DNA from: Escherichia phage vB_EcoM_ESCO50
Length of the DNA: 64,000 nt
Direction: 5' to 3' (one strand)
Sequence record: OM386664.1
Part shown: positions 1 to 14,080 of the stretch, in pieces
Numbering within the stretch: position 1 is the first letter of the stretch
Layout: the number at the start of each line of letters is the position of its first letter
The notes under the pieces: model-generated
Told to the model about the DNA's origin: nothing
Database searches by the model: none
The model's input: only the letters and a program-made list of their open reading frames with translations
Program-made: the position numbers and the translations under genes

Positions 1-952
1 AACAGTTGATACATAGGCTTTACAGAATCTTAACAGATGATTAACAAGAGCTAACAAGTTAATTTTTAAGGGTTATTTTGTTAAGATAATTAACAAGTTC
101 CTAACAAGTGTTTAACCTTTTTAACAAACTATTAACATGGTCACTACTCTTTTCTTATCATTCCCTTTCCTTTCTTAGTGACACCTTAAAAATGCCTTTT
201 AAAAGCTCTCTATAGCTCTCTATAGGCTCTTTTTAGTCTCTCCCTAGTATTTACCCCTCAAATGTATGAATAGCTCTTTATAGTGCTTTACAGTGCTTTT
301 AAGGCTATGCCAAAGGCTCTTACAAGGCTTTTACATGGCTTTAACAGAGATTTAACAAGGTGCTAACAAGTTGCTAACAAGCATAACTATGTAGGGGTTG
401 TTAATGGATTGTTAAAAAGATGTTAAAGGGGCTAGCATTTACGTAACTTTTACGTAACTTCAAAGTAACTTTATAGCCCCTTTTACGTAACTTTATAGCC
501 CCTATAACATACTTTTTAGTGACTATCAAGCCCTTTTTAGTAGTTCACGAGATACTAGTCAGCCTATAAGCTTATACCCTTAAAAGTTTCTTTTAAGGCT
601 CTGTAAAGCCTTATAAAGGGCTTTTTAAGGTTAGTTAATGCAATCCCTTAAGTTATATTGATAATGCTGTTATAGAGCGTTATAGAGCGTTATAGAGCGT
701 TATAGAGCGTTTAAAGGTTTGCCCTTCCCTCTCGGGCTATGGGCTTGTATTTAAGTTGATTTGATAAAAGGCTATAGGGTAGACTATAGAGTTATTGCTT
801 TTTAAGGTATGAGATAAACTCTATCGAATCAGTGGGAGATTCTGGAAAGGTGAGGAAAGGGATTGCATAAGGATTTGATAGACGTAAAAAAGCCCCATTT
901 AAGGGGCTATATAAAGGTGTCTGGGGCTATTTAGCCCCGCTGCATTGACAAC
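1..952. repeat. Repeat-rich non-coding region with several families of short direct repeats (TAACAAG >=7 copies, TTACGTAACTT x4, GTTATAGAGC x4 in tandem near 669-708, CTCTATAG pairs); iteron-like, candidate origin, genome end or protein-binding array
   Basis: No ORF >=60 aa in any frame; repeats read directly from sequence. Confidence 0.6.
885..908 (-). terminator. Rho-independent terminator on minus strand (stem AGCCCC/GGGGCT, followed by U-run), 3' of gene 953-1483; a second hairpin GGGGCT-ATTT-AGCCCC lies at ~923-938
   Basis: Inverted repeat with adjacent A-run on plus strand (U-run on minus transcript). Confidence 0.5.
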
Positions 953-1483
953 TTACAGATTTTTGATTGTATCATCGATATCTTTTTCAATATCTTTTAA
1001 AGTTTTTTCTAAATTCTTGATATTGAAAGATAAGCCCTCTCCCAATGTCTTAGAATAACCTTCAGGGCGTAAATCGTACAGGTTAATTTTTTCCACTTCA
1101 AAGAGACTAACCAGCTCACCGCTTACATTGTAAGCCATTGAAACAGTATTTACAGGGGCTTTATAAAACTTGTTCAATGACTTGATTGAACGCTCATAAG
1201 TCATTTTATAACTGTTTAACAGGTTTTTAACGTGATTGTAAATGTTTTTACACTCATCTAAGTAAATCTCTAAGAATAACGGTAATAATTTTGCGACAGC
1301 TTGCATAAAATGAGAGACTACAACGGTTGCAACATTACGACGATGGACATAATAAGCCCCTTTTCCTGATTTAGTGATAGTTGCAAAATGTACACCATTG
1401 CAGCGAAATTCATATGTATCTTTTACAGGTTTAGACATTACAGCATTTGAACGAATATAGTTGATAGCTTGAAATTTGTTCAT
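953..1483 (-). CDS. Hypothetical early protein (176 aa)
   Basis: ORF with GGAGA RBS ~8 nt upstream of ATG; own promoter/hairpin cassette upstream; no recognisable motif. Confidence 0.5.
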   Translation of the reverse strand: MNKFQAINYIRSNAVMSKPVKDTYEFRCNGVHFATITKSGKGAYYVHRRNVATVVVSHFMQAVAKLLPLFLEIYLDECKNIYNHVKNLLNSYKMTYERSIKSLNKFYKAPVNTVSMAYNVSGELVSLFEVEKINLYDLRPEGYSKTLGEGLSFNIKNLEKTLKDIEKDIDDTIKNL

Positions 1484-1704
1484 TTTTAGAATCTCCAGTT
1501 TAGGACTTTATTTAGTGGGGAGGTCATCCCTCCCCGTTGGTTAGTAATTTACTTGGTTTGATATCTGATTGCAAGCATTTTTTTAAGTTTATCTATAAAG
1601 AAATCTTTTAAGTGAATCCCTTTTAGATAAGCCCCCTCGAACAATATTATCAATGTCAAGAGGGATTGTCAACACTTTTTTAAAAGTTTTTTGTAAGTTA
1701 TTGA
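1484..1704 (-). promoter_or_regulatory. Type A cassette: sigma70-like promoter (TTGCAA-N17-TAAATT, ~1546-1574) followed by GC-rich 5' hairpin GGGGAGG..CCTCCCC (~1517-1535) and GGAGA RBS
   Basis: Conserved repeated intergenic sequence; hexamers and 17-nt spacing read on minus strand. Confidence 0.55.
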
Positions 1705-2046
1705 TTAGCTTATAAATATTTTTTCAGGTTTTACATAGCTGATACGCTGATTTTTTAGCAAGTCATTCCAGATTAGCGCGGCAATATGAGAATAACCGGA
1801 TTCACGTAAAATTTTCATTGTTTTCCTTCTCGTTTCAAATCTGGTTGCATAGTACTCACTATTTAAAACCGTTTTATTGCCTTCACTGTCCACATGGATA
1901 ATCTGCATTACTTGGAAGGGGCTTACATCCTCGCCTTTATTCCATTGTTCAAAGTATTTTAGGCACTGCATAGGTGACATCTTGTCACTTACTTGAGTTG
2001 ACCAAGATGAATCCTCTTTATCAGTGACTACGGTTACATAAGCCAT
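1705..2046 (-). CDS. Hypothetical early protein (113 aa)
   Basis: ORF preceded by type A cassette and RBS. Confidence 0.5.
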   Translation of the reverse strand: MAYVTVVTDKEDSSWSTQVSDKMSPMQCLKYFEQWNKGEDVSPFQVMQIIHVDSEGNKTVLNSEYYATRFETRRKTMKILRESGYSHIAALIWNDLLKNQRISYVKPEKIFIS

Positions 2047-2138
2047 ATTTTGAATCTCCTAGTTTAAGGACTTTACTTAGTGGGGAAGGTCATTCCCTCC
2101 CCGTTGATTGATAATTTATAGATTTTTATCTGGCTTGT
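2047..2138 (-). promoter_or_regulatory. Type A cassette (hairpin GGGGAGGGAATGACCTTCCCC with one G-U pair, TAAATT -10-like element, weaker -35) plus RBS
   Basis: Near-identical copy of the 1484-1560 repeat. Confidence 0.5.
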
Positions 2139-2372
2139 CTAGTCTTTTTTAATGATGATTTCATCTTGCCCGTCAACACTGTCGAAATAGATTCCATCGT
2201 CATCTTCTGTTTTAAAGTAACATTTAATGTCATCACTGGCGGGGTAGTCTTGTCTTGCTATCTGGCAAACCTGAATAGCATTTTCTTTACTCCCTGTAAA
2301 CTCCTCAAGCCCTTTAAAATCGCATGAATACCCATTACAGGTGGAAAGGATGAGATAAACGGTTATAAGCAT
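2139..2372 (-). CDS. Hypothetical small acidic protein (77 aa), hydrophobic N-terminus
   Basis: ORF; acidic C-terminal half. Confidence 0.45.
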   Translation of the reverse strand: MLITVYLILSTCNGYSCDFKGLEEFTGSKENAIQVCQIARQDYPASDDIKCYFKTEDDDGIYFDSVDGQDEIIIKKD

Positions 2373-2438
2373 GATTAAAGCCCTCTAAAAGCCCCTACAA
2401 GGGGCTGAATAGTGTTTATAAGGTGATTGTATAGGTTA

Positions 2439-2981
2439 TTAGAAAAAGCTCTTCAAATCTCTTTCTACAATGTTTTCTGTCAGTGCGTCCATGATGTCAC
2501 AAAAAACCTGAATACTATCCACCTGTTGAACACTTTTAGCAAGAAATTCTAAAGGCTCCTCAATATAGTTTAAATTCGGATTATCCAACGAAGGGAGACA
2601 AAAAGGCGAGTACATCGCATTAAACTCGGTTACGTAAACCTTTTTAATCCAATTCAAATCGAAATATTCTGTAAAACTTGCCACGCTCGACATATTATCG
2701 CAAGAGAAATCATCGTTTAATTCATCCTCTGGAATATCAAGTTCTAAGATAACAATATTTTGAGTTTTCATTTGAAAGGCCGCTGATATAGTGGCATTTC
2801 CTAGCGCTTGTTGAATTCCTTCCGATGTTATCTCTTGCTCATCGTCGCCATAGATTTTATTTTCTGGGTACACGTAAAAATTGCCGTCCATGTCCGAACA
2901 ATTCCATGCACCTGATGGCTTGTCGCCGTTATTAATCAGGTTGAGGAAATTTTCTTGAGTAGTACCGTGAAAACATTTCAT
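2439..2981 (-). CDS. Hypothetical protein (180 aa), acidic
   Basis: ORF preceded by type B cassette. Confidence 0.5.
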   Translation of the reverse strand: MKCFHGTTQENFLNLINNGDKPSGAWNCSDMDGNFYVYPENKIYGDDEQEITSEGIQQALGNATISAAFQMKTQNIVILELDIPEDELNDDFSCDNMSSVASFTEYFDLNWIKKVYVTEFNAMYSPFCLPSLDNPNLNYIEEPLEFLAKSVQQVDSIQVFCDIMDALTENIVERDLKSFF

Positions 2982-3073
2982 TTTAGAATCTCCAGTTTAG
3001 GATTTAGCGGTAAAGCTCTTTATCTGGGGCTTACTATATCGAACTGTAAGCCCCTTGTAAAGTACTTTATCAA
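2982..3073 (-). promoter_or_regulatory. Type B cassette: promoter TTTACA-N17-TATAGT with the spacer and -10 embedded in hairpin GGGGCTTAC...GTAAGCCCC, then RBS
   Basis: Conserved repeat; one stem position changed with a compensating change relative to other copies. Confidence 0.55.
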
Positions 3074-3271
3074 TTATTTTTTGACAACTTTTAAAACGGC
3101 AAGATAACCTAAACAATATGAATCACCGAAGAGAGTCCGGCCCATAAATGAATCCTCTTTAATATCCTTTGCAGTGACGGTTTTTTCTACGCCGTGGGAG
3201 AGGACTACATCGCCAACTTTAATGTCTTTGATATGTGTAGTTTCAATGTTTAAACCGTTAATAATAGCCAT
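3074..3271 (-). CDS. Hypothetical small protein (65 aa)
   Basis: ORF between two cassettes. Confidence 0.4.
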   Translation of the reverse strand: MAIINGLNIETTHIKDIKVGDVVLSHGVEKTVTAKDIKEDSFMGRTLFGDSYCLGYLAVLKVVKK

Positions 3272-3377
3272 TTTTAGAATCTCCAGTTTAGGACTTTATT
3301 TAGTGTGGGAGGTCATTCCCTCCCCGTTGATGTGTAATTTAGTCTATCTAAAAACCAGTGTCAACAATTTTTTTTTT
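3272..3377 (-). promoter_or_regulatory. Type A cassette: TTGACA (~3359-3364) N17 TAAATT (~3336-3341), 5' hairpin ~3307-3325, RBS
   Basis: Read on minus strand; consensus -35 and 17-nt spacer. Confidence 0.6.
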
Positions 3378-3782
3378 TTAAAGTTCTGTATAAATTGCGT
3401 CGCAGATATCACGAAAGTCGTGATTTGACAAATTACGCTGCAACCAAGTAGCGAAAAAATCAGCGATTGCAAAATTCGCGCCATACTCGACGGATAACCA
3501 TACTTTCACGGCGAATCTGAATATTTTTAAATCAAGTTCTTTATTCATTACCTTAGATTTGCCCAACATGTCAGCCATTTCATATTGTGCGCCGTCTAGC
3601 GTGATACCCGCTGCAACGTCAATCAGTGAGGTTTTTACGCTTTCAACGTCTAAGATAACACTCTGAATCTTCCCAATAATATTATATAAGGTTTCATCTG
3701 GCGCTGCTGATGTCAGAGCATTAATCCGGTTAACGGTCAAACGTGCTTTTAAGATTAATAACTCACGGTTATTAATAGTCAT
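3378..3782 (-). CDS. Hypothetical protein (134 aa)
   Basis: ORF with cassette upstream. Confidence 0.5.
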   Translation of the reverse strand: MTINNRELLILKARLTVNRINALTSAAPDETLYNIIGKIQSVILDVESVKTSLIDVAAGITLDGAQYEMADMLGKSKVMNKELDLKIFRFAVKVWLSVEYGANFAIADFFATWLQRNLSNHDFRDICDAIYTEL

Positions 3783-3867
3783 TTTAGAATCTCCAATTTA
3801 GGATTTAGCGGTAAAGCTCTTTATCTGGGGCTTACTATATCGAACTATAAGCCCCTTGTAAAGTACT
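3783..3867 (-). promoter_or_regulatory. Type B cassette (TTTACA-N17-TATAGT overlapping hairpin GGGGCTTA...TAAGCCCC)
   Basis: Repeat copy. Confidence 0.55.
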
Positions 3868-4140
3868 TTATACTAAATGCAGCTTTTTGCCTTTTACCAT
3901 GATGTAACTTGATGCGCTATTGCTATATACATCCTGATAAATTCTGCGCAAACGTCCTTTATAGTGAACTTTCCAGCTCGTTGGTATCTTTTTCCCATAT
4001 CCGGTAGCAGTTTTTTGAAGTCCAGCAATTTGCCAATCCAAAATATGTTGTTCCGCTTGTAAATCCTCAAAATTCATCACGCCGTCTACATAGTGGCGTA
4101 GAGTGACATTTAGAGTACGGCCATTGTTAGTAGTATACAT
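3868..4140 (-). CDS. Hypothetical protein (90 aa)
   Basis: ORF with cassette upstream. Confidence 0.5.
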   Translation of the reverse strand: MYTTNNGRTLNVTLRHYVDGVMNFEDLQAEQHILDWQIAGLQKTATGYGKKIPTSWKVHYKGRLRRIYQDVYSNSASSYIMVKGKKLHLV

Positions 4141-4235
4141 TTTTTGAATCTCCTAGTTTAAGGACTTTACTTAGTGGGGAAGGTCATTCCCTCCCCGTTG
4201 ATGTGTAATTTAATATATCTAAAAATCAGTGTCAA
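4141..4235 (-). promoter_or_regulatory. Type A cassette: TTGACA (~4230-4235, overlapping stop of upstream gene) N17 TAAATT (~4207-4212), 5' hairpin, RBS
   Basis: Repeat copy with consensus -35. Confidence 0.6.
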
Positions 4236-4564
4236 CTGTTTTGTTTTCGTTTGCTCATTTCTTGAGCAATTACAGCGTAGTAGTCTTTTAAGTCACTGAT
4301 ATTCAAAGCATTTATCAGAGAGTTATAATCATCGACTAACTGAAAATCATCTTTAAAGATATCGCTGATTTGATAGGTTTTTGCTTTAAATCTAAAGCTC
4401 ATCTCTAGCCGTTTTATTTGCTCATCGCTTAAACGCTCTAAAAAGCTCTCTACGAGGTTATTGCTAACCTGTTGTGTGATTGCCTTATCTGCTAAATTAT
4501 AGGCGCTGTAAGCCTTATAAAGTGCTATAATGGCGATGATTGCAGTAATTCCCATCATTAACAT
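4232..4564 (-). CDS. Hypothetical membrane protein (110 aa; N-terminal hydrophobic helix)
   Basis: ORF; N-terminus MLMMGITAIIAIIALYKAY is hydrophobic. Confidence 0.5.
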   Translation of the reverse strand: MLMMGITAIIAIIALYKAYSAYNLADKAITQQVSNNLVESFLERLSDEQIKRLEMSFRFKAKTYQISDIFKDDFQLVDDYNSLINALNISDLKDYYAVIAQEMSKRKQNS

Positions 4565-4580
4565 GATGTTTCCTCTTAAT

Positions 4581-5093
4581 TTAATTTTTAAAGATATTCA
4601 GCACCGAATCTTTTAATGATTCCAAGCGTTCTAATACTTCAGATTCTGCGCCTGAATTGCTCACCTCCTCTTTTAGTCTATCCTCTAAATCAACGCCGTC
4701 GCTATAGCACCAATCGAAAGCGTAACCAATAGAAAAACTATCTAAAACCGTTTTTCCGTTTGCGTCTACAACTTTTGCAGATAGGTAATACTCTGAAGCC
4801 TCTAAATCCCTTTTTAGCTCTTCCTGTAAGCTTATGTAAGCCTCACGGGATGGATTTTTCCGGCCTTGTTTTGCATAGTCGCTTGAGAGCTGTTTAAGGC
4901 TGTAATGTAAAGGGATTGCATATTTAAATTCATTGCGTTGATAGTTAGGATTTTTAATAGTCGCACCGCCTTGATGGTCATCTGTAAACTCCCAATTTTC
5001 AAGGGCATGACTTGGTTCATACCAAGTAACAGCCTCATAAATGATTGAGAATTTTTCTTTTACAACTTCAAAGGTAGCGTCTATAGTTTTCAT
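4581..5093 (-). CDS. Hypothetical protein (170 aa)
   Basis: ORF closely following upstream gene. Confidence 0.5.
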   Translation of the reverse strand: MKTIDATFEVVKEKFSIIYEAVTWYEPSHALENWEFTDDHQGGATIKNPNYQRNEFKYAIPLHYSLKQLSSDYAKQGRKNPSREAYISLQEELKRDLEASEYYLSAKVVDANGKTVLDSFSIGYAFDWCYSDGVDLEDRLKEEVSNSGAESEVLERLESLKDSVLNIFKN

Positions 5094-5177
5094 TTTAGAA
5101 TCTCCAGTTTAGGTTTAGTGATAAAGCTCTTTATCTGGGGCTTACTATATCGAACTATAAGCCCCTTGTAAAGTACT
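5094..5177 (-). promoter_or_regulatory. Type B cassette
   Basis: Repeat copy. Confidence 0.55.
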
Positions 5178-5561
5178 TTATTTGTTAATTTTGAAGATAG
5201 TTACATAGCCATCGCTCCCGATGATTTGAGATACTCCAGCTTTTTCTACTGAATAGCCCATATTCTCAAGATGATAAACAGCGTCATCATAACCATATGC
5301 GCCGCCCTGATAGCGTCTCTTATTGCATTTTATCAGGTTTTTACCACGTCCAGCAAGTGCATTTAGTACGGCTTTTTCACTTGAAAGCGTACCGTCTAAC
5401 ATTGTTGCCGTGTAATGATTGATTTTATTCCCGTTGATATCATACTTGAAATTAAACGAGTGAACAACAATTATTTTATCGTTAAATTTTTCATCAAGCG
5501 CCTTCTCTAATACATTACGGAAATTTTCTTTATTGATGAATTTAGGTGCACGATATGTCAT
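5178..5561 (-). CDS. Hypothetical protein (127 aa)
   Basis: ORF with cassette upstream. Confidence 0.5.
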   Translation of the reverse strand: MTYRAPKFINKENFRNVLEKALDEKFNDKIIVVHSFNFKYDINGNKINHYTATMLDGTLSSEKAVLNALAGRGKNLIKCNKRRYQGGAYGYDDAVYHLENMGYSVEKAGVSQIIGSDGYVTIFKINK

Positions 5562-5649
5562 TTTTAAGTTCTCCAGTTTAGGTTTAGTGATAAAGCTCTT
5601 TATCTGGGGCTTACTATATCGAACTATAAGCCCCTTGTAAAGTACTTTA
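5562..5649 (-). promoter_or_regulatory. Type B cassette
   Basis: Repeat copy. Confidence 0.55.
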
Positions 5650-5856
5650 TTAGATTTCGTAGTAGTAAACTGCTGTCTGTCTTATGTGCTTTCTTGTTAC
5701 TCTTGTAAGATAGCAATTAGAGTCTATAGCCGTTTCTACATAATTGCAATAATCAGACTCTGAAATTCTGGACCATGCACCGCAAATTTGCATGTAAAAA
5801 CGCTTTACATTTGTGTTAACGTTAGTTGTGACCATCAATTCACGACCGTATAGCAT
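5650..5856 (-). CDS. Hypothetical small protein (68 aa)
   Basis: ORF with cassette upstream. Confidence 0.4.
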   Translation of the reverse strand: MLYGRELMVTTNVNTNVKRFYMQICGAWSRISESDYCNYVETAIDSNCYLTRVTRKHIRQTAVYYYEI

Positions 5857-6368
5857 TTTTAGATTCTCCTAGTTTAAGGCTATTGGGCTTGTTTGCCTGT
5901 CTGATGAAAATACTAAATGACCATATCCAGAGAGTCAATAAAAAATTTTAAAAATATTTTCAGGAATTGCCAGAGAGGAACGGGTGCGCGCGAATACCAC
6001 AAAACAGAACACAAATCAAGAATTATTTTTCAATCCGCTACAAATTTTTCTGTTGACTTTTCTTTTTGGATGTGGTAGCCTTGTGAGAAATGGCGACATC
6101 CCCGCCTAGACCCGCTTACCTGCACAATTCTAAAATGATTTTTCTTGCCCGACCTGATTTTTCTCTGCACGTTTTGAAAATGAAAAAGCTCTTTGGAGAT
6201 TACCTGCACAGTTTGAAAATGAATTTTCTCTTTGGAGTTCAAAATTTTCTCTACAGATTTCTCTATAGAAATATACCTGCACAATTCTGAAATGAAAAAG
6301 CCCTCCTTACCTGAAAAATTTACCAGATAAGAAAGGCTTAGTCTATTGTGAATATTCTACAGAGTTTC
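5857..6368. repeat. Non-coding island with ~4 direct copies of CTGCAC(A/G)(A/T)TT(C/T)TGAAAATGA (~6115-6295) plus CTTTGGAG(A/T)T repeats and a GC-rich patch; candidate regulatory array
   Basis: Repeats read from sequence; track ORFs here (6030-6284, 6090-6290) only translate the repeats. Confidence 0.5.
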
Positions 6369-7154
6369 TTAGCTCTTTGCGTCTAAGAAGGTAACTTCTG
6401 GTGAAGAGAAGATTGCCTCGATATCCTCATCAGTTCTTGCATAAATGTAAGCATCGGCATCACTACCAAATGTCACAGCAATTCTGTGATTGCTCTTCGA
6501 CAGGTGGGTAACTAGAGCGTTACTTAGAGACATCTTTTCAACCGGAGGGTTACTTTGATGTATCTTACCTTTTCTTCGTCTGAAGAGGGTAACTGCGTTA
6601 TCTGTGAACACAACTACACCTGCAAAGTATTCTGGTTCACAGTAGTTTTTCCAACCTGAGTGTAACTCGTTGTACATCTCTGTCTCGTAGACATACAGAT
6701 AAACATCTACACTCTTCATCACCTGATTGATGATAACTGTGACAGCTTGAGGGTCAAGTCCACCGATACCTGCACCAATCATAGGTAAACCAACTTTCTT
6801 CAACTGGTTAACTTCACAGTATCTGTTAAGTTGCTTCAAAGATGACTCTAAAGCACTGTATCGGGCGTCTTTACCAGTCTTAAGCTGAGTGTAAAGGTTA
6901 GCTATACGACCTTGTTTTAAACGTGCTACAGAGAAATTACCCAGTAAATTTTCACAGGGTTTGTGGCCTATACCACCTGCATAGAGGTAAACTTCTGTAT
7001 CGGTCTCATATGCTTTTGGGTAAAGTTTAGAAATCTTGTCAGCGATACCTGCACCCATTAAATTCATACAGTTGCAACCGTGACCAATGATGTCAAACTT
7101 ACCTTTATCAAAGGCGTCAAAGATATCACCATTGATGATTTTTACAATACCCAT
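6369..7154 (-). CDS. Macro-domain-like protein (ADP-ribose binding/processing) with ~100 aa C-terminal extension
   Basis: N-terminal GDIFDA...DIIGHGCNCMNLMGAGIA and later GLPMIGAGIGGLD resemble macro-domain glycine-rich loops; motif recognition only. Confidence 0.45.
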   Translation of the reverse strand: MGIVKIINGDIFDAFDKGKFDIIGHGCNCMNLMGAGIADKISKLYPKAYETDTEVYLYAGGIGHKPCENLLGNFSVARLKQGRIANLYTQLKTGKDARYSALESSLKQLNRYCEVNQLKKVGLPMIGAGIGGLDPQAVTVIINQVMKSVDVYLYVYETEMYNELHSGWKNYCEPEYFAGVVVFTDNAVTLFRRRKGKIHQSNPPVEKMSLSNALVTHLSKSNHRIAVTFGSDADAYIYARTDEDIEAIFSSPEVTFLDAKS

Positions 7155-7355
7155 TTAACATCTCTCCCAAGATTCTTTATCTTCTGAAGGCTTTACACGT
7201 TGCCCTTCGTGGTCTACCCAGATGCACCCACATCCTTCACAGATTACTGGCATTGCATAGCCAGCTTTGAAGTCATCTTCAGTGATAAGACCTTTTAAGT
7301 CACCTGTATCACGTCCAAACATTTCGATAGAACAGTCTTTGCAGAAGTCAGCCAT
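7155..7355 (-). CDS. Small zinc-ribbon protein (66 aa; CKDC...CEGCGC)
   Basis: Two Cys pairs; directly abuts the macro-domain gene. Confidence 0.45.
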   Translation of the reverse strand: MADFCKDCSIEMFGRDTGDLKGLITEDDFKAGYAMPVICEGCGCIWVDHEGQRVKPSEDKESWERC

Positions 7356-7367
7356 ATAATATACACC

Positions 7368-7595
7368 TTATAGTTCGGTTTCTCGTAACTCTTTACCTTC
7401 ATCATAGAAGCATTTATAGAATGTGTCTATAGAGATTCTGGCAAAGGTGAGGTCTTCAAAGTATTCCTCTGGAGTTGTCCCTGTAAAACTAAAACTATCG
7501 AGGCTGTAAAATGGTATCACTGTGTCGTGACTCACGAAAACACATGCTGACGTGACTTCTCCAGTATCTTTGTCAATTACCTCTAGAGCTTTCAT
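7368..7595 (-). CDS. Hypothetical acidic protein (75 aa)
   Basis: ORF. Confidence 0.4.
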   Translation of the reverse strand: MKALEVIDKDTGEVTSACVFVSHDTVIPFYSLDSFSFTGTTPEEYFEDLTFARISIDTFYKCFYDEGKELRETEL

Positions 7596-7896
7596 AGCTT
7601 ACCTTTTCGGTTAGTTCATATAAATCAACATGCTCAATGCTGTCAATGTTGATATCAATCTTTTTGAAACGTTCTATCACTTCGTTGGCAGTCATCCATA
7701 TCAGACACCAATGATTCTTGATGGATTCTTCAAGAAGGTCAACACAGTCTTTAAAGGTTTTTGTATCACTCCTTGTTCCGACTACTGCAATTGTCCCATA
7801 TAGCCACTTACCATTGTCATAAGATACTTGTGCTACACCAACCTCTTTATCTTTCTCGTAGTAAACGGCTACAAAGTCTCTTCCATTAATCTGCAT
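7573..7896 (-). CDS. Hypothetical protein (107 aa)
   Basis: ORF. Confidence 0.45.
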   Translation of the reverse strand: MQINGRDFVAVYYEKDKEVGVAQVSYDNGKWLYGTIAVVGTRSDTKTFKDCVDLLEESIKNHWCLIWMTANEVIERFKKIDINIDSIEHVDLYELTEKVSYESSRGN

Positions 7897-7898
7897 AG

Positions 7899-8168
7899 TT
7901 ACTTCCTCGTTTTAAGAACTGCTAAGATTTCTTTAGAGTCTGGTAAGAACCATGTGTAGTGATTTTCTTTGATTTCTGGATGAGTGTCAACCTTTATTTT
8001 GCACTCTTTACCAACATGCTTAAGCTGTGCTGTGACACCTTGCATAAAGATATGGCACATCACATTATCCATAATGGTTGGTGAGAAATCAATTCGCATA
8101 TAAGTTTCTTTTGGTCGTGGTAACAGTAAGTAACCCTCTACATAGAAAGTATCTTGATTCTCTGTCAT
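7899..8168 (-). CDS. Hypothetical protein (89 aa)
   Basis: ORF. Confidence 0.45.
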   Translation of the reverse strand: MTENQDTFYVEGYLLLPRPKETYMRIDFSPTIMDNVMCHIFMQGVTAQLKHVGKECKIKVDTHPEIKENHYTWFLPDSKEILAVLKTRK

Positions 8169-8727: not shown

Positions 8728-9192
8728 TTAACCGAGGACTTTAGCAAGGATATTCGCAGCCATCGAAGAGGCTTTTGCAGCAGCAACTACGCCAGCTTTG
8801 ATAGCACTATCCTTGATAGCAGATACCGTTGCAGCATCAGTAAAGAGATAAGTAGTTGTTTTAGAACCACTTGTAAAGGAAAGCATAAGAGCAGTTTCCA
8901 GATTGAAAGAGCGATACGGAGCACCTTCTTTAACGATACCTTCAGCACCTAACTCTGAAGCCATACCCATATCATAGATAGTCATCAGGTTTTCTTTGTG
9001 TGCAGTCGTTGAACCAGCACCTTTGACGTGTTTCTTAACATTCAGAAGAGCACGATACTCCCGGATGTTACCGTCTGCTTTTACATTGACAGCACGGAAG
9101 ATTTTACCTTCAAAGTTGCTCTTGATAATGTTACGAACTACTTCAGATTTGTTTGCTGTAACGTCCAGTGCTACCGTAATGATACTGTTCAT
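8728..9192 (-). CDS. Hypothetical protein (154 aa)
   Basis: ORF. Confidence 0.5.
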   Translation of the reverse strand: MNSIITVALDVTANKSEVVRNIIKSNFEGKIFRAVNVKADGNIREYRALLNVKKHVKGAGSTTAHKENLMTIYDMGMASELGAEGIVKEGAPYRSFNLETALMLSFTSGSKTTTYLFTDAATVSAIKDSAIKAGVVAAAKASSMAANILAKVLG

Positions 9193-9201
9193 AAGTTTCT
9201 C

Positions 9202-9897
9202 TCAATGTTTAACTAACATGGTTTTAATGTGTGGAAGGATTCTGTTTACCTTCTGCACATTCTTCTCTGTATCTTCTATAAAACATACTATATTAAAGTA
9301 AGGCAGAATGCAAGACTGAATCATCCTCACTTTCAAACTTTCTGCACTTATAGAGTTAGCCCCAAAACCACGCATAAAAAGCATGTAGTCATGCTCTATG
9401 TAATGCCTTAAAAACATCTCAGTAGGTATTCTCTGAGATTCACCCCTCGCTGTCAAGAGTCCAATGGCAGCATGGTTGGCAATTGCATCAATAATATTGA
9501 AAACATACGTTGGTTTTGCACTTACAGAGTCAAGCAAATTAGTGTACTGTGAAAATGAACCATCAATCAGTTCCGTTGAGCAATCTTCGTGATTAAAATT
9601 TGTAAGAACACCATCAATATCTGCTAAGATGAGGTTACCTTTTTCTACAAGGTCTTTATTGACTATGACTAAACTGTCACGTCTTACACCTATAGATTGC
9701 CCCGTCTCTTTATCCACAACGTTCACAATCGGTTCTGAAGTGTGGAACTCTTCAAGTGAACATACAACTTCTCTTGCAGTGTCTTCAAAATCCCTACACT
9801 GTTCTGGAGTCCATACACCGGAATCAAGACCTAACTCATGAGGGTGTAAGTCATAAGCATGACACAGTACTTCATCAGACTTTCTTAATTTTTTCAT
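9202..9897 (-). CDS. HAD-superfamily phosphatase-like protein
   Basis: Motif I ILADIDGVLT (DxDG), motif II LLTAR. Confidence 0.45.
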   Translation of the reverse strand: MKKLRKSDEVLCHAYDLHPHELGLDSGVWTPEQCRDFEDTAREVVCSLEEFHTSEPIVNVVDKETGQSIGVRRDSLVIVNKDLVEKGNLILADIDGVLTNFNHEDCSTELIDGSFSQYTNLLDSVSAKPTYVFNIIDAIANHAAIGLLTARGESQRIPTEMFLRHYIEHDYMLFMRGFGANSISAESLKVRMIQSCILPYFNIVCFIEDTEKNVQKVNRILPHIKTMLVKH

Positions 9898-10523: not shown

Positions 10524-11633
10524 TTAGATTTCACGTTTACGTTGAGAGATAAGTTCACCAGCAGTGCCAACGATGACATGCAAAGCTTCAGTCTTACCAT
10601 CCCATGCTTTCAGCACTTTACGTTGATTATCAACGATTGCTGCAACTTCATAACGAGAGGAACGCATCTTCATATCGTTGTAATCAGTTGGAACAGATAC
10701 AACATCTCGTGGATGGACACGAACCTTCAGGATGGTATCACCTGAGAAGCAACGAACATAATCCCAAGCACCAACATGAAGACCTTGAGAGCAAGTTACG
10801 TTACGGTTGTTATCAACCATCCAACGTGGCATCTCTACAATGTTACCCAAATCATTAGGTACTCTGTAGGTGTGGGAGTCAACCAGCTTGCCTTCACGAG
10901 TAGATACTTTCTTCCAACCAATGATGTAGCCTTCTTCATCAATTTCAACATCAAGGTGAGATACAAAGCCCCAAAGTTGTTCTACAGAGTCTTTAGATGG
11001 GTTTTCCATCAGTTTTTCGAAGAACATCACAAGGCGTTCAAAACCTTTATCTCCAGTCTTCATCATGTGAAGAATACGGTCAACCAGAGTAGAACGCATC
11101 TCAACAGCACCGTAGAATAGCTTGTCGCCTTTGATTGTGATAGCACCCTGAGTGAAGTTTTCGATAGACTTACGAATGTTCATCAGTTCAAATGCTTTCT
11201 TGAACTCACCCTTCACAACATGAACTACAATCTCTTGATAGTTTGGATGAGTAGACTCAACAATTTCAGATTCTGAACCATAAGTCATAATTACAGAATC
11301 ACCAGTAATCATGTACTCAATATTGTCATCTTTCTGCATAGCTTCATGCAGTTTATTTACCGGAGCTTTCTGTACAGGCTCTTTAACAGCCTTTTTAACT
11401 GGCTTATCAGCTTTCTTTTTAAAGGTCTTAGCAACTTGCTTTAAAGTCTTCGTAGCTGGTGTAGAAGTTGCCTTTTTATTCCCTTTTAAGGTTGCTTCAT
11501 GACGCTCTACAGCACGACCGACTGAACGGGTTGATGTGTTAAATTTCTGTGCAATAGCTGTTTTAGTCAGCTCGCCCTCTTTAACCAGTTTGTAAATTTC
11601 TGCGTCAATCTGTGCTTTAGTTTTAGTAGTCAT
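10524..11633 (-). CDS. Possible rIIB-like protein (369 aa); N-terminal HTH-like segment, Lys/Ala/Pro-rich linker
   Basis: Sits immediately downstream of the rIIA-like gene; assignment rests on position, not on recognised motifs. Confidence 0.3.
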   Translation of the reverse strand: MTTKTKAQIDAEIYKLVKEGELTKTAIAQKFNTSTRSVGRAVERHEATLKGNKKATSTPATKTLKQVAKTFKKKADKPVKKAVKEPVQKAPVNKLHEAMQKDDNIEYMITGDSVIMTYGSESEIVESTHPNYQEIVVHVVKGEFKKAFELMNIRKSIENFTQGAITIKGDKLFYGAVEMRSTLVDRILHMMKTGDKGFERLVMFFEKLMENPSKDSVEQLWGFVSHLDVEIDEEGYIIGWKKVSTREGKLVDSHTYRVPNDLGNIVEMPRWMVDNNRNVTCSQGLHVGAWDYVRCFSGDTILKVRVHPRDVVSVPTDYNDMKMRSSRYEVAAIVDNQRKVLKAWDGKTEALHVIVGTAGELISQRKREI

Positions 11634-11678
11634 CTTATTACTCTCTCTTTTTTAATTAATAAATCATTTTGTGAGGCT

Positions 11679-11708
11679 ATTCTAAGGGGCTTCAAAGCCC
11701 CTTGTCAA
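11679..11708 (-). promoter_or_regulatory. Sigma70-like promoter TTGACA-N18-TAGAAT with hairpin AGGGGCT..AGCCCCT in the spacer
   Basis: Hexamers read on minus strand upstream of 10524-11633. Confidence 0.5.
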
Positions 11709-11713
11709 GAACC

Positions 11714-14080
11714 TTAATCGTAAACTGTTGTACCTTCTGGAACACATTTCACATTAAAGCCTAAAAACTTACTCACTTCAATAGGTGACACTTTATTCCA
11801 ATCTAAATGGGAAAGCAAGAAATTTTCTTGTTTTCTTTTTGAAAGGTAGTTTGTCACCTTAATAACCATACGGTCACCAGCTTTCCTGATTTTCTTGTAA
11901 AGCTTTGTGTTATTGTCAAGACACCCTTTCAGAGTTTGCAAGACACTAATAGTGTAAGTGTACGCAAACGGTGCAGCAACGTATTGGATTTTACCGAACA
12001 TTGCCTCTACAGCCTCTTCATTACCTTCTAGGAAGATAGTTTTGTTAGTATCTCGTGAATAGCAATAACCACGAGAAATCTTCCTGTTATTGAATGTAAA
12101 GTTTCTGGCAATAATCCAACTGCTTGTAAGGTCAAGAACACCATTCATGTAGATGCGTGTCATATACCTGTTATGATTAATCCAATGAACATCCGTTAAG
12201 CTGTCGTTCAAGAGCTTCTCATCTACTTCAATCCAGTCTTCTGGTATCTTTTTCCAATTTGCTTTTCGGAAAACATAGACTGTCTTACCTGTAACATTAG
12301 CAACTGACTTAGCTACATCCTCTGGAGATGAGCAAAAACATCTACCATCAACTGTGTCACCTACTGCCTTAATATAAAGCTGAGGCTCTTCAATTGTGTC
12401 TAAGTCTTCTGACACCTCTTTGTATGAAGCTTTAGTTTCTGCTGGAACAGCTTTCCAGAGTTTTACAACACCTCTTACAGCTTCTTTACGCTGATAGTGA
12501 TGTTCCTTATCAGACATCTTCACAATCTTTAACAAGCTTTTATCAAGTTTGTGCAGATTGATTAAGTCATCTAGCTCTTTCTCTGTAGAGAATACAAAGA
12601 CAATACCATTGTATCTGTGAAACAGATTTGACTCACTGGCGTAGTCTCGACATGCACCACGCAAAATTTGATTGCGTCCTACAGTCTTCTCAGTACCGTT
12701 TTTATTGCGACGGTCATTAATCACGAACAAAAACTGTTCAATTTGGCTTTTACGCATTGCACCAAAGATATTGAACATGCTTGCCTCTTGAGTGTAGGAA
12801 AGTGCTGTTACACGAATCTTACTCTCTAAAGAGTTGAACTTGACATAAGCAACTGGGTCATAAAGATAATCTACTTTAGGGATATTGTTCCCGTTCCTAT
12901 CAACCTTAATATTGCCTTTACCATCACGTTCATAAATGACTGAGCCGTCTTCTGCGTAGATAATTCCACGACGAATGTTTAACAATTCTTCTTCCAGAGA
13001 ATCAAGCTTAACGCCTCCCCACTCTAGCTTTGGACACACAGCATTAAACATCTCTCGTGAGTTCAAACGTAACTCTGCATAAGCCTGTGCAGCATCCATG
13101 AGTGTAGGTTGGCTATTAACTTTCTTGATAACATCCTTTGTAATTGCTTCAGTTATCTTTTTGGTAGCCTCGATGATAACATTTTTTGTCGTATCATTCA
13201 TCTGCAATGCTTCACGAGAAGCTGCTATAGCAACTGAACCAATAGGCATGTAGATGTTTACAAGGTCTACGCTCCTACGGAAAAACTCTGGCAAGACTTT
13301 GAAGAAATCATCACCAAGTAATGCTTCCATGTTCACTGGATAGGCAATATTACCCATCACCACATTAAACTCTAGCCTATTACCACTAGAACGCCAGCTT
13401 TGCTTATGAATCATGGCATCATAAACACCTTCTTCACGGGCAATGACGTTCATATCTGCTAATACATCGTCGTACTCAATATTACTTTCTGGTTTTACAG
13501 CAAAGTATGAGTACACATTTCCAGCTTCTTCAAAGAACTTTGAGATACGGTGGTCAGCAACTGCCACACGTACAGCTAAACCATTAGGTTCTTTTGTTGG
13601 GTTAGTGGTCAGCTTAGTTACTTGAGGGATACCATTCTCAAGATAAACAGAGTACTTATTAACAACACCATCAACATAGCTAGATACTGTGAATGACTGA
13701 GCAATTGCAAATGGAGATTTTGAGCCGATACCCATTGCACCAATGTAGTCATTAGAGTCATTCTTCGTAGAAGCCCCGTAGTTTAGGTACAAACTCATAA
13801 CTTTATCATGAGTCAATCCAGTTCCAAAATCACGAACTTCAAAGTAAGGCTCAAAACGAGTAGGTAAATGCACATGGAACGGGATATTCTCTTTTCCAGC
13901 TTCTTTCTGAGCATCTACTGCATTGCATGACAGTTCACGAATCACTGCCCTTTCTTTAAATGTGTATACACCAGAACTCAGAAGGCTGAACATTTCAGGT
14001 GTCATTGTAATCTGTGCTTGAGATGTCTCCAAAGAAGTTGAACTCTTAATCACTTCTGCGTGGTCATTTACCATGCGCAT
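11714..14080 (-). CDS. rIIA: rIIA-like protein with N-terminal GHKL (Bergerat-fold) ATPase domain
   Basis: N-box ELSCNAVDA, G1 DFGTG, G2 GAMGIGSKS; 788 aa, comparable to T4 rIIA. Confidence 0.55.
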   Translation of the reverse strand: MRMVNDHAEVIKSSTSLETSQAQITMTPEMFSLLSSGVYTFKERAVIRELSCNAVDAQKEAGKENIPFHVHLPTRFEPYFEVRDFGTGLTHDKVMSLYLNYGASTKNDSNDYIGAMGIGSKSPFAIAQSFTVSSYVDGVVNKYSVYLENGIPQVTKLTTNPTKEPNGLAVRVAVADHRISKFFEEAGNVYSYFAVKPESNIEYDDVLADMNVIAREEGVYDAMIHKQSWRSSGNRLEFNVVMGNIAYPVNMEALLGDDFFKVLPEFFRRSVDLVNIYMPIGSVAIAASREALQMNDTTKNVIIEATKKITEAITKDVIKKVNSQPTLMDAAQAYAELRLNSREMFNAVCPKLEWGGVKLDSLEEELLNIRRGIIYAEDGSVIYERDGKGNIKVDRNGNNIPKVDYLYDPVAYVKFNSLESKIRVTALSYTQEASMFNIFGAMRKSQIEQFLFVINDRRNKNGTEKTVGRNQILRGACRDYASESNLFHRYNGIVFVFSTEKELDDLINLHKLDKSLLKIVKMSDKEHHYQRKEAVRGVVKLWKAVPAETKASYKEVSEDLDTIEEPQLYIKAVGDTVDGRCFCSSPEDVAKSVANVTGKTVYVFRKANWKKIPEDWIEVDEKLLNDSLTDVHWINHNRYMTRIYMNGVLDLTSSWIIARNFTFNNRKISRGYCYSRDTNKTIFLEGNEEAVEAMFGKIQYVAAPFAYTYTISVLQTLKGCLDNNTKLYKKIRKAGDRMVIKVTNYLSKRKQENFLLSHLDWNKVSPIEVSKFLGFNVKCVPEGTTVYD

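Follow-up and report, generated by a model that had tools for sequence, protein, structure and literature searches.

In the 64,000-nucleotide stretch of the genome of Escherichia phage vB_EcoM_ESCO50 analysed here (record OM386664.1; hereafter the window), an array of small minus-strand genes at positions 953-5856 is punctuated by two families of near-identical intergenic cassettes, types A and B. Each cassette combines a predicted promoter, a stem-loop and a Shine-Dalgarno (SD) sequence. We consider it likely that they are portable expression units resembling the promoter early stem-loop (PeSL) elements of T4-type phages, and that their repetition supplies the homology for gain, loss and reordering of genes unit by unit. 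An original prediction had suggested such a resemblance, and it has held: the architecture matches the published PeSL definition, and the comparative signature is present among relatives.

Positions 700-6300 match 247 phage records, nearly all of them from Felix O1-like myoviruses, the closest being Escherichia phage ESCO56 (95% identity over the full length). The window belongs to a Felixounavirus, and region 953-5856 is the counterpart of Felix O1 genes 14-23. The array genes follow a macro-domain gene at 6369-7154 and comprise 11 open reading frames (ORFs) of 65-180 aa, one more than the ten first reported. Their description as lacking recognisable domains stands, as Pfam returned none, PHROGs returned only families of unknown function, and a sequence search of the PDB found no relatives. 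Because the 11 ORFs are mutually dissimilar, an origin of the array by tandem gene duplication was rejected.

The predicted families, A and B, were recovered on the minus strand where they had been placed, each in four copies. These spacers, 85-105 bp each, occupy eight of the ten internal junctions, giving the order MACRO-g1-B-g2-B-g3-g4-A-g5-B-g6-A-g7-B-g8-g9-A-g10-A-g11 (Table 1). Over their full 93 nt, the type B copies share 80-98% identity with each other, and a 29-nt hairpin core recurs at 3026-3054, 3827-3855, 5137-5165 and 5606-5634 (4 matches versus 0.00 expected). In type A, the -10 element and the start of the hairpin recur at 1528-1551, 2095-2118, 3318-3341 and 4189-4212 (4 matches versus 0.02 expected). 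Every copy of both families terminates in a shared 3' SD module, CCTAAACTGGAGA...ATG, with GGAGA 7-9 nt upstream of the start codon. The spacer is entirely occupied in all eight cases, with the preceding stop codon lying within, or no more than 7 nt from, the first cassette bases; in A4 the g4 stop codon TGA is embedded in TTGACA. Profile searches of all 64 kb of the window, and of the 24.7 kb by which Felix O1 extends beyond it, found no further copies. The g8-g9 spacer, one of the two cassette-free junctions, has no promoter.

Table 1. Features of the array and its borders (window coordinates).
Feature	Position	Strand	Source
g1	5650-5856	-	ORF list
g2	5178-5561	-	ORF list
g3	4581-5093	-	ORF list
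g4	4232-4564	-	ORF list
g5	3868-4140	-	ORF list
g6	3378-3782	-	ORF list
g7	3074-3271	-	ORF list
g8	2439-2981	-	ORF list
g9	2139-2372	-	ORF list
g10	1705-2046	-	ORF list
g11	953-1483	-	ORF list
B4 (g1/g2): stop codon, TTTACA-17-TATAGT, three-helix hairpin, SD GGAGA, ATG	5562-5649	-	
B3 (g2/g3)	5094-5177	-	
B2 (g5/g6)	3783-3867	-	
B1 (g7/g8): ninth stem pair C-G instead of U·G	2982-3073	-	
A4 (g4/g5): TTGACA-17-TAAATT, hairpin GGGGAGGG/CCTTCCCC 10 nt past -10, SD, ATG	4141-4235	-	
A3 (g6/g7): A-tract upstream of TTGACA; stem cut to 6 bp (CCTCCCAC)	3272-3377	-	
A2 (g9/g10): -35 TAGACA	2047-2141	-	
A1 (upstream of g11): TTGCAA-17-TAAATT, hairpin GGGGAGG/CCTCCCC	1484-1574	-	
Non-repeated promoter upstream of g1, TTGACT-17-TAGTAT	5857-5938	-	promoter scan
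Intrinsic terminator closing the upstream unit before the array	6298-6339	-	terminator scan; = Felix O1 t13
Intrinsic terminator closing the array after g11	891-908	-	terminator scan; = Felix O1 t23 equivalent
Terminator-like hairpin AGCCCC-TTGTA-GGGGCT + TTT in the g8-g9 spacer	2390-2406	-	sequence inspection

A promoter scan of the window returned TTTACA-17-TATAGT four times and TTGACA-17-TAAATT twice, each agreeing with the consensus at 10 of 12 positions. The -35 element of type A had been given as TTGACA or TTGCAA, which is correct for A1, A3 and A4; A2 (2047-2138) carries TAGACA instead, whose TAG is the stop codon of g9. Conservation of these elements was examined in about 270 cassette copies gathered from 30 relatives. 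Of 125 unique type B copies, 124 have TTTACA as the -35; the two boxes are 17 bp apart in 118 copies and 18 bp apart in the other 7. Their -10 elements comprise 12 different hexamers, every one of them TAnnnT; the middle bases vary, as does the rest of the loop. The -10 of type A is TAnnnT in all 123 copies, and TTGnnn or TAGACA stands exactly 17 bp upstream of it in 121. The three bases held constant, the initial T and A and the final T, are those that matter most to sigma70. From these patterns we infer that the cassettes have promoter activity with start sites at the positions predicted.

The promoter region upstream of g1 has only the 3' SD module in common with the cassettes, and in many relatives the equivalent of 5857-5938 carries a type-A-like hairpin. 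Another promoter, stronger in appearance (TTGACA-17-TAATAT, its -10 extended by TG; 1644-1672, minus strand), precedes A1 by about 90 nt; the g10-g11 spacer that holds it is unusually long, at 221 nt. Outside the array, non-repeated composites of promoter and hairpin occur on the minus strand at 11669-11715, at about 14672 and at about 21694; one example, TTGACA-AGGGGCTTTGAAGCCCCT-TAGAAT, has its spacer filled by a hairpin. The promoter/stem-loop design is thus not confined to the two repeat families.

The type B promoter had been described as having its -10 inside a hairpin. The -10 does lie in the loop and 3' arm of one, and the fold is far larger than had been proposed: 21 bp in three helices that span the whole promoter, with the -35 TTTACA within the 5' arm. 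On the sense strand, an outer helix (AUAAAGU/GCUUUAU) encloses a second (CUUUA/UAAAG) and an inner one (GGGGCUUAY/GUAAGCCCC), with a 3x3 internal loop between the second and inner helices and a 1x1 mismatch as a further interruption. The folding energy ranges from -23.4 to -23.7 kcal/mol; relative to shuffled sequences, the z-scores are -4.5 to -6.3. The predicted start, about 7 nt past the -10, coincides with the base of the inner stem. A transcript from the cassette's own promoter would thus begin inside the 3' arm, and the complete hairpin would be confined to read-through RNA from the upstream gene. Type A is arranged differently. In the window, a GC stem of 6-8 bp begins ten nucleotides past the -10, some 2-3 nt from the predicted start of the transcript, and is succeeded by ACTAAnTAAAG, the SD and ATG; it folds with z-scores of -2.4 to -2.8 and, in the 123 copies, starts 10-11 nt after the -10, placing it 2-4 nt from the predicted 5' end of the transcript.

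Stem changes between copies had been said to be compensatory, and within the window they are not. Among the four type B stems the sole difference is one C or U facing G (C-G versus U·G). The type A copies and their folds differ by a change in loop length, by G·U pairs and by one mismatch, CCCAC, which makes the stem shorter. Two-sided changes appear only once relatives are included. We aligned 96 unique type B copies and assessed the 21-pair structure on them; counts from this alignment are cells from related sequences and do not represent independent events. Base pairs are formed in 92.6% of cells, RNAalifold independently yields the same three helices, and the covariation score of 0.098 compares with 0.062 for shuffled alignments (0 of 500 reach the observed value) and with 0.039 or less when the partners are slid. 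Pair 6-59 is GC in 75 copies and UA in 12 (Fisher p = 6e-11, relatedness ignored). Two-sided changes are also seen at pair 22-44 (CG 55, UG 39, UA 1) and pair 27-40 (AU 30, UG 23, UA 16, CG 1). An Erwinia phage has GGTGTTTA/TAAGCACC, in which GGTG...CACC replaces GGGG...CCCC, another G-C to U-A change, and its copy keeps the outer helices and TAnnnT.

The same alignment indicates which strand folds. At the 17 core pairs, G·U occupies 143 cells and A·C only 4, and one pair is U·G in 89 of the 96 copies. This excess argues for folding of the sense strand, as RNA or as non-template DNA. For type A, the sense strand gives a better fold than the antisense strand in 32 of the 37 unique stems, and in a more distant genus unrelated GC stems (GGGGC/GCCCC, GGGC/GCCC) are found at the position of the type A hairpin.

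Neither hairpin is followed by a U-tract (ACTAAGTAAAG follows the type A stem and AGATAAAGAG that of type B), and the terminator scan flags neither. Because this element is absent, a role as canonical intrinsic terminator was rejected for both. A search of positions 1-8000 against Rfam 15 gave chance-level miRNA-like matches only (E 0.4-0.8, about half the gathering score). A stem-loop within 2-4 nt of a 5' end has the geometry that protects mRNA from 5'-end-dependent decay, and the likeliest function of the GC-rich type A hairpin would be as a 5'-terminal stem-loop of this sort. The type B hairpin, carried by read-through RNA, would most likely act as an insulator, whether as an attenuator, a processing site or a protector of upstream 3' ends. 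We hold these role assignments tentatively, at close to even chances or a little below. The specific proposal that type B is an RNase III processing site, cutting read-through RNA into stem-ended units as in the early region of phage T7, where such processing of mRNA is known, is possible and still doubtful. The shape fits, with about 21 bp in two or three helices, the 3x3 loop and 1x1 mismatch, an intergenic position, sense-strand folding and the missing U-tract; no sequence or Rfam match links it to a known element, however, and as each gene has its own predicted promoter, processing would be unnecessary to separate the messages.

Taken together, these features suggest how the portable units would operate. 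The spacer from one stop codon to the next ATG would amount to a complete, transferable signal, consisting of a promoter for host sigma70, a structured leader and a strong SD; host RNA polymerase could therefore transcribe each unrelated small gene separately, without needing modification. At the same time, direct repeats of 85-105 bp, spaced 0.3-0.6 kb apart and sharing a 3' module, would be substrates for homologous or short-homology recombination, which could delete, duplicate, insert and reorder gene-plus-cassette units while leaving the expression of neighbouring genes intact.

Relatives were collected by a scan with the neighbouring macro-domain protein, which gave 29 loci in a viral contig collection, and by adding three GenBank relatives, Felix O1 and an Erwinia phage. 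Profiles built from the window copies detected 8-16 cassettes per relative, all downstream of the macro-domain gene, and none in the 10 kb upstream of that gene in the relatives scanned. BLAST searches of 50,697 phage records placed type B in 288 records at 1,447 places, including Ounavirinae of Erwinia, Citrobacter and Shigella, and type A in 245 records at 1,249 places, with none in Erwinia phages. Essentially all matches are in Ounavirinae or in enterobacterial phages of the Felix O1 type; the matches listed for the two cassettes include no T4-type phage. A type B cassette of about 87% identity is also present in MG065664.1 (Campylobacter phage A132) and in one record named as a Staphylococcus phage, which suggests that these records are mislabelled or contaminated by Felix O1-like sequence. 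Erwinia phage Panisse (L035) has cassette families of its own, at 6651-6721, 9138-9217, 9543-9620 and 11139-11508; their hairpins, for example GGGGTTAYGGTTATGAGACTATAACCCC and GAGGGGTTAAAATCCCCTC, are all joined to a different shared 3' module, AACAACCCTTAyAAAGGAATCA...ATG.

The region is not colinear and identical among relatives, as had been anticipated. Presence and absence were scored in 27 relatives in which it is fully covered, and gene and cassette maps were drawn for 30. Only g4, g5, g6 and g10 are always present in the 27. Between g2 and g3, 21 loci carry a type B cassette with a gene, x19, that are missing in the window; g3 is missing from several loci, and g7 is missing or replaced by another gene, f34, in some. 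Additional genes occur between g9 and g10 in some loci, and in many g11 is followed by two further cassette-gene units (A-f29-A-f26) that the window lacks. Felix O1 lacks g2 and also the block g7-g8-g9, which lies between two type A cassettes. Gene order differs as well: f34 precedes g7 in L011 (79% protein identity) and follows it in L017 (98%). An apparent translocation of f33, found in different slots in L002 and L025, was dropped, as the proteins share 39% identity over 41 residues only. The variable genes g3 and g7 have homologues, 30-57% identical, in unrelated phages, among them rV5-like myoviruses (about 145 kb), T1-like siphoviruses and phages of Pectobacterium, Pseudomonas and Ruegeria. 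In some records g7 is labelled 'prohead assembly scaffold protein', a label that is probably wrong.

In L025 (7349-7523), x19 and a type B cassette are tandemly duplicated with a head-to-tail junction at which the cassette ATG is fused to CTTTACA. In L030 (12713-12894), an empty cassette runs from its ATG directly into a second one; here the duplicate is partial and lacks its -35. These adjoining cassettes look like scars of duplication or deletion, or of a circular intermediate. The modules have also been reassorted: hairpin type and SD variant occur in all four combinations, each of them common (A/v1 70, A/v2 74, B/v1 97, B/v2 41), and different cassette types can precede the same downstream gene. 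The TATAGT allele stands at all four type B sites only in the window and ESCO56, and a Felix O1-specific allele is present at two non-adjacent sites. Such spreading of lineage-specific alleles over several sites indicates gene conversion.

Several points weigh against this reading. The expectation that gains and losses would be bounded by cassettes was borne out in that most differences involve a gene-plus-cassette unit; it failed for the window's own loss of a type B cassette with gene x20, in which a TAAA microhomology connects the area of the g3 stop codon with the 3' end of x20. The view that every insertion or deletion is a cassette-to-cassette event was rejected on the basis of this junction. 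With cassettes at eight of the ten internal junctions, position alone would already place part of the indels there, and selection for intact genes would give the same bias. Positional orthologues in different genomes differ on average by 0.089 and paralogues within a genome by 0.157, from which homogenisation must be occasional rather than pervasive; general concerted evolution is unsupported by these distances, and only the lineage-specific homogenisation is visible. The relatedness of the aligned copies tempers the covariation counts, and neither hairpin has the U-tract of a terminator. The label 'early' fits only part of the region: by reverse transcription PCR in Felix O1, ORFs 16, 20, 21 and 22 peak at 5 min, as does ORF 13, and ORFs 14, 17, 19 and 23 peak at 25 min. 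Finally, no transcript map for Felixounavirus or Ounavirinae was found in the literature searched.

Some of these points raise the question of whether the cassettes cause the rearrangements or only mark them. They could be no more than conserved regulatory spacers, with illegitimate recombination occurring anywhere and selection purging the events that cut genes. The 4-nt microhomology at the x20 deletion would suit this explanation, as would the L025 and L030 junctions, which also resemble short-homology events, the coincidence expected when cassettes stand at 80% of junctions, and the closer average distance of positional orthologues. It accounts poorly for an allele that occupies the four type B sites of a single lineage and another at two non-adjacent sites in Felix O1, for the reassortment of hairpin and SD modules at the same orthologous junction, and for the fact that exactly one intact cassette typically remains after a deletion. 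We regard it as unlikely, and infer that the cassettes take part in the rearrangements.

A further alternative concerns type B as DNA. It might mainly be an operator at which a dimeric phage or host regulator binds 12-bp TAAAG-NN-CTTTA palindromes, positioned over the -35 and at about +5, to turn the promoters off after the early phase; an RNA role could coexist with this. The element TAAAGTACTTTA is perfectly palindromic, the 3' palindrome and an adjoining unpaired AGA are near-invariant in the 96 unique copies, beyond the needs of pairing, and the motif occurs 9 times against 0.21 expected, with 8 of the 9 in cassettes. Yet in the covariation, position 5 of the 5' copy is coupled to position 8 of the 3' copy, which is pairing between arms rather than symmetry within a motif. 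The departures from Watson-Crick pairing are G·U rather than A·C and hence strand-specific, the inner stem shifts in sequence and register with complementarity kept, and other predicted early promoters lack the motif. A general early-promoter operator was set aside, there being a single site outside the cassettes. An operator as the main function of type B appears quite improbable. Less probable still is that type B is a strand-specific folded site recognised by a phage enzyme, such as a homing-type HNH or structure-specific nuclease, with its conserved internal loop and mismatches likened to those of integron attC; were it true, the enzyme would excise and insert circular gene-plus-cassette units, a dedicated gene-capture system of Ounavirinae.

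The sequences bordering the array have features of their own. The macro-domain protein encoded directly upstream (6369-7154, minus strand), annotated in relatives as O-acetyl-ADP-ribose deacetylase, is 63-97% identical across the subfamily and plausibly counters host ADP-ribosylation. A 510-bp non-coding stretch between the terminator of its gene and the first array promoter contains four copies of a repeat of about 30 nt (TTTTTCATTTTCAnAAyTGTGCAGGTA-like; 6116-6310, minus strand), and Erwinia phage Panisse has a comparable four-copy array at the equivalent site (L035:4553-5013). The repeats look like iterons or a protein-binding array. Beyond g11, window positions 1-950 are a long non-coding segment with four tandem copies of GTTATAGAGC at 669-718, other short direct repeats, and 34-nt inverted repeats separated by 290-380 nt. 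The segment, whose Felix O1 counterpart is a gap of 1.6 kb without genes between convergent units, might hold origin or packaging signals.

If the cassettes are indeed portable units, the PeSL idea is extended from T4-type phages to an unrelated myovirus subfamily widely used in Salmonella and E. coli biocontrol, and portable promoter-hairpin-RBS (ribosome-binding site) linkers, with which accessory genes are exchanged and adjacent genes stay undisturbed, may be a general solution among lytic phages. Some 290 genomes, with about 1,400 copies of type B and 1,250 of type A, form a large natural data set for cassette-mediated gene flux and for choosing accessory genes for anti-defence and host-takeover screens; the suggestion, made for this array, that such regions concentrate anti-defence genes is a generality. 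The cassettes are also obvious landing sites for payload genes in these phages.

The repeats have been seen before. Whichard et al. (2010, PMC3185647) listed 'direct repeats' in Felix O1, of 57 bp between genes 15/16 and 19/20 and of 39 bp between genes 18/19 and 20/21. The 57-bp repeat is type B, and the 39-bp repeat is the promoter half of type A. They were reported as repeats only and are absent from the predicted promoters and terminators of that paper, which called promoter usage and the organisation and timing of transcription unknown (PMC3185647). The literature searched contained no PeSL-type description for Felixounavirus or Ounavirinae. A gene-essentiality study of the related phage Bas63 described regions of small hypothetical genes of mixed essentiality and did not discuss the spacers. 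A PeSL-type reading of these elements, not previously interpreted in this way, is new for Ounavirinae; it explains the Felix O1 repeats and proposes the early promoters that phage has been missing.

Among other known elements, the type A hairpin is closest to the E. coli ompA leader, in which Emory, Bouvet and Belasco reportedly described, in 1992, a 5'-terminal stem-loop that stabilises the mRNA. The likeness lies in its fixed distance from the -10 and hence from the predicted 5' end; the difference is that the type A hairpin would occur in read-through RNA too. REP-type intergenic hairpins protect upstream mRNA, and the type B hairpin resembles these and the RNase III sites of T7 in being intergenic, sense-strand, long and irregular, with no U-tract; it differs in having no homology to them and in also containing a promoter. 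Integrons offer a third parallel, as a gene linked to an imperfect palindrome with a strand-specific fold recalls attC, and both systems form one-orientation arrays of unrelated small genes. Here, however, the palindrome bears a promoter and SD, and homology adequately explains the rearrangements. No integrase is annotated in the region or flanks of the relatives examined, nor was an attI seen, although no systematic search for recombinases was made.

The closest counterpart remains the PeSL. As defined by Arbiol et al. (2010, PMC2839356), it runs from a stop codon through an AT-rich tract, sigma70 -35 and -10 elements, a G-tract/C-tract stem-loop that overlaps the -10 or sits just downstream, and an SD to the ATG, in regions of small ORFans. 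Carriers are the T4-type phages RB49/phi1, T4/PST and KVP40/nt-1 (Arbiol et al. 2010, PMC2839356; Comeau et al. 2014, PMC4122927), and for RB49, promoter and terminator activity and mini-circles were demonstrated experimentally (Arbiol et al. 2010, PMC2839356), the circles by inverse PCR and with their joints inside cassettes. In the present array, the L025 head-to-tail junction is compatible with a circular intermediate and is not proof of one. The cassettes likewise fill the whole spacer from stop codon to ATG, have sigma70-type boxes with an AT-rich upstream tract, and place a GGGG...CCCC-type stem-loop over the -10 (type B) or just downstream of it (type A), ahead of an SD. Both kinds are repeated among small ORFans in a plastic region where close relatives differ by cassette-bounded indels. 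The present ones differ in belonging to Ounavirinae, with genomes of about 86 kb, with no sequence homology to T4-type PeSLs detected; in forming two tightly conserved families with a common 3' module, restricted to one 5-kb array; and in the 21-bp, three-helix fold of type B around the whole promoter. As the PeSL family is defined by architecture, the lack of homology marks the cassettes as an analogue in a new lineage rather than excluding them.

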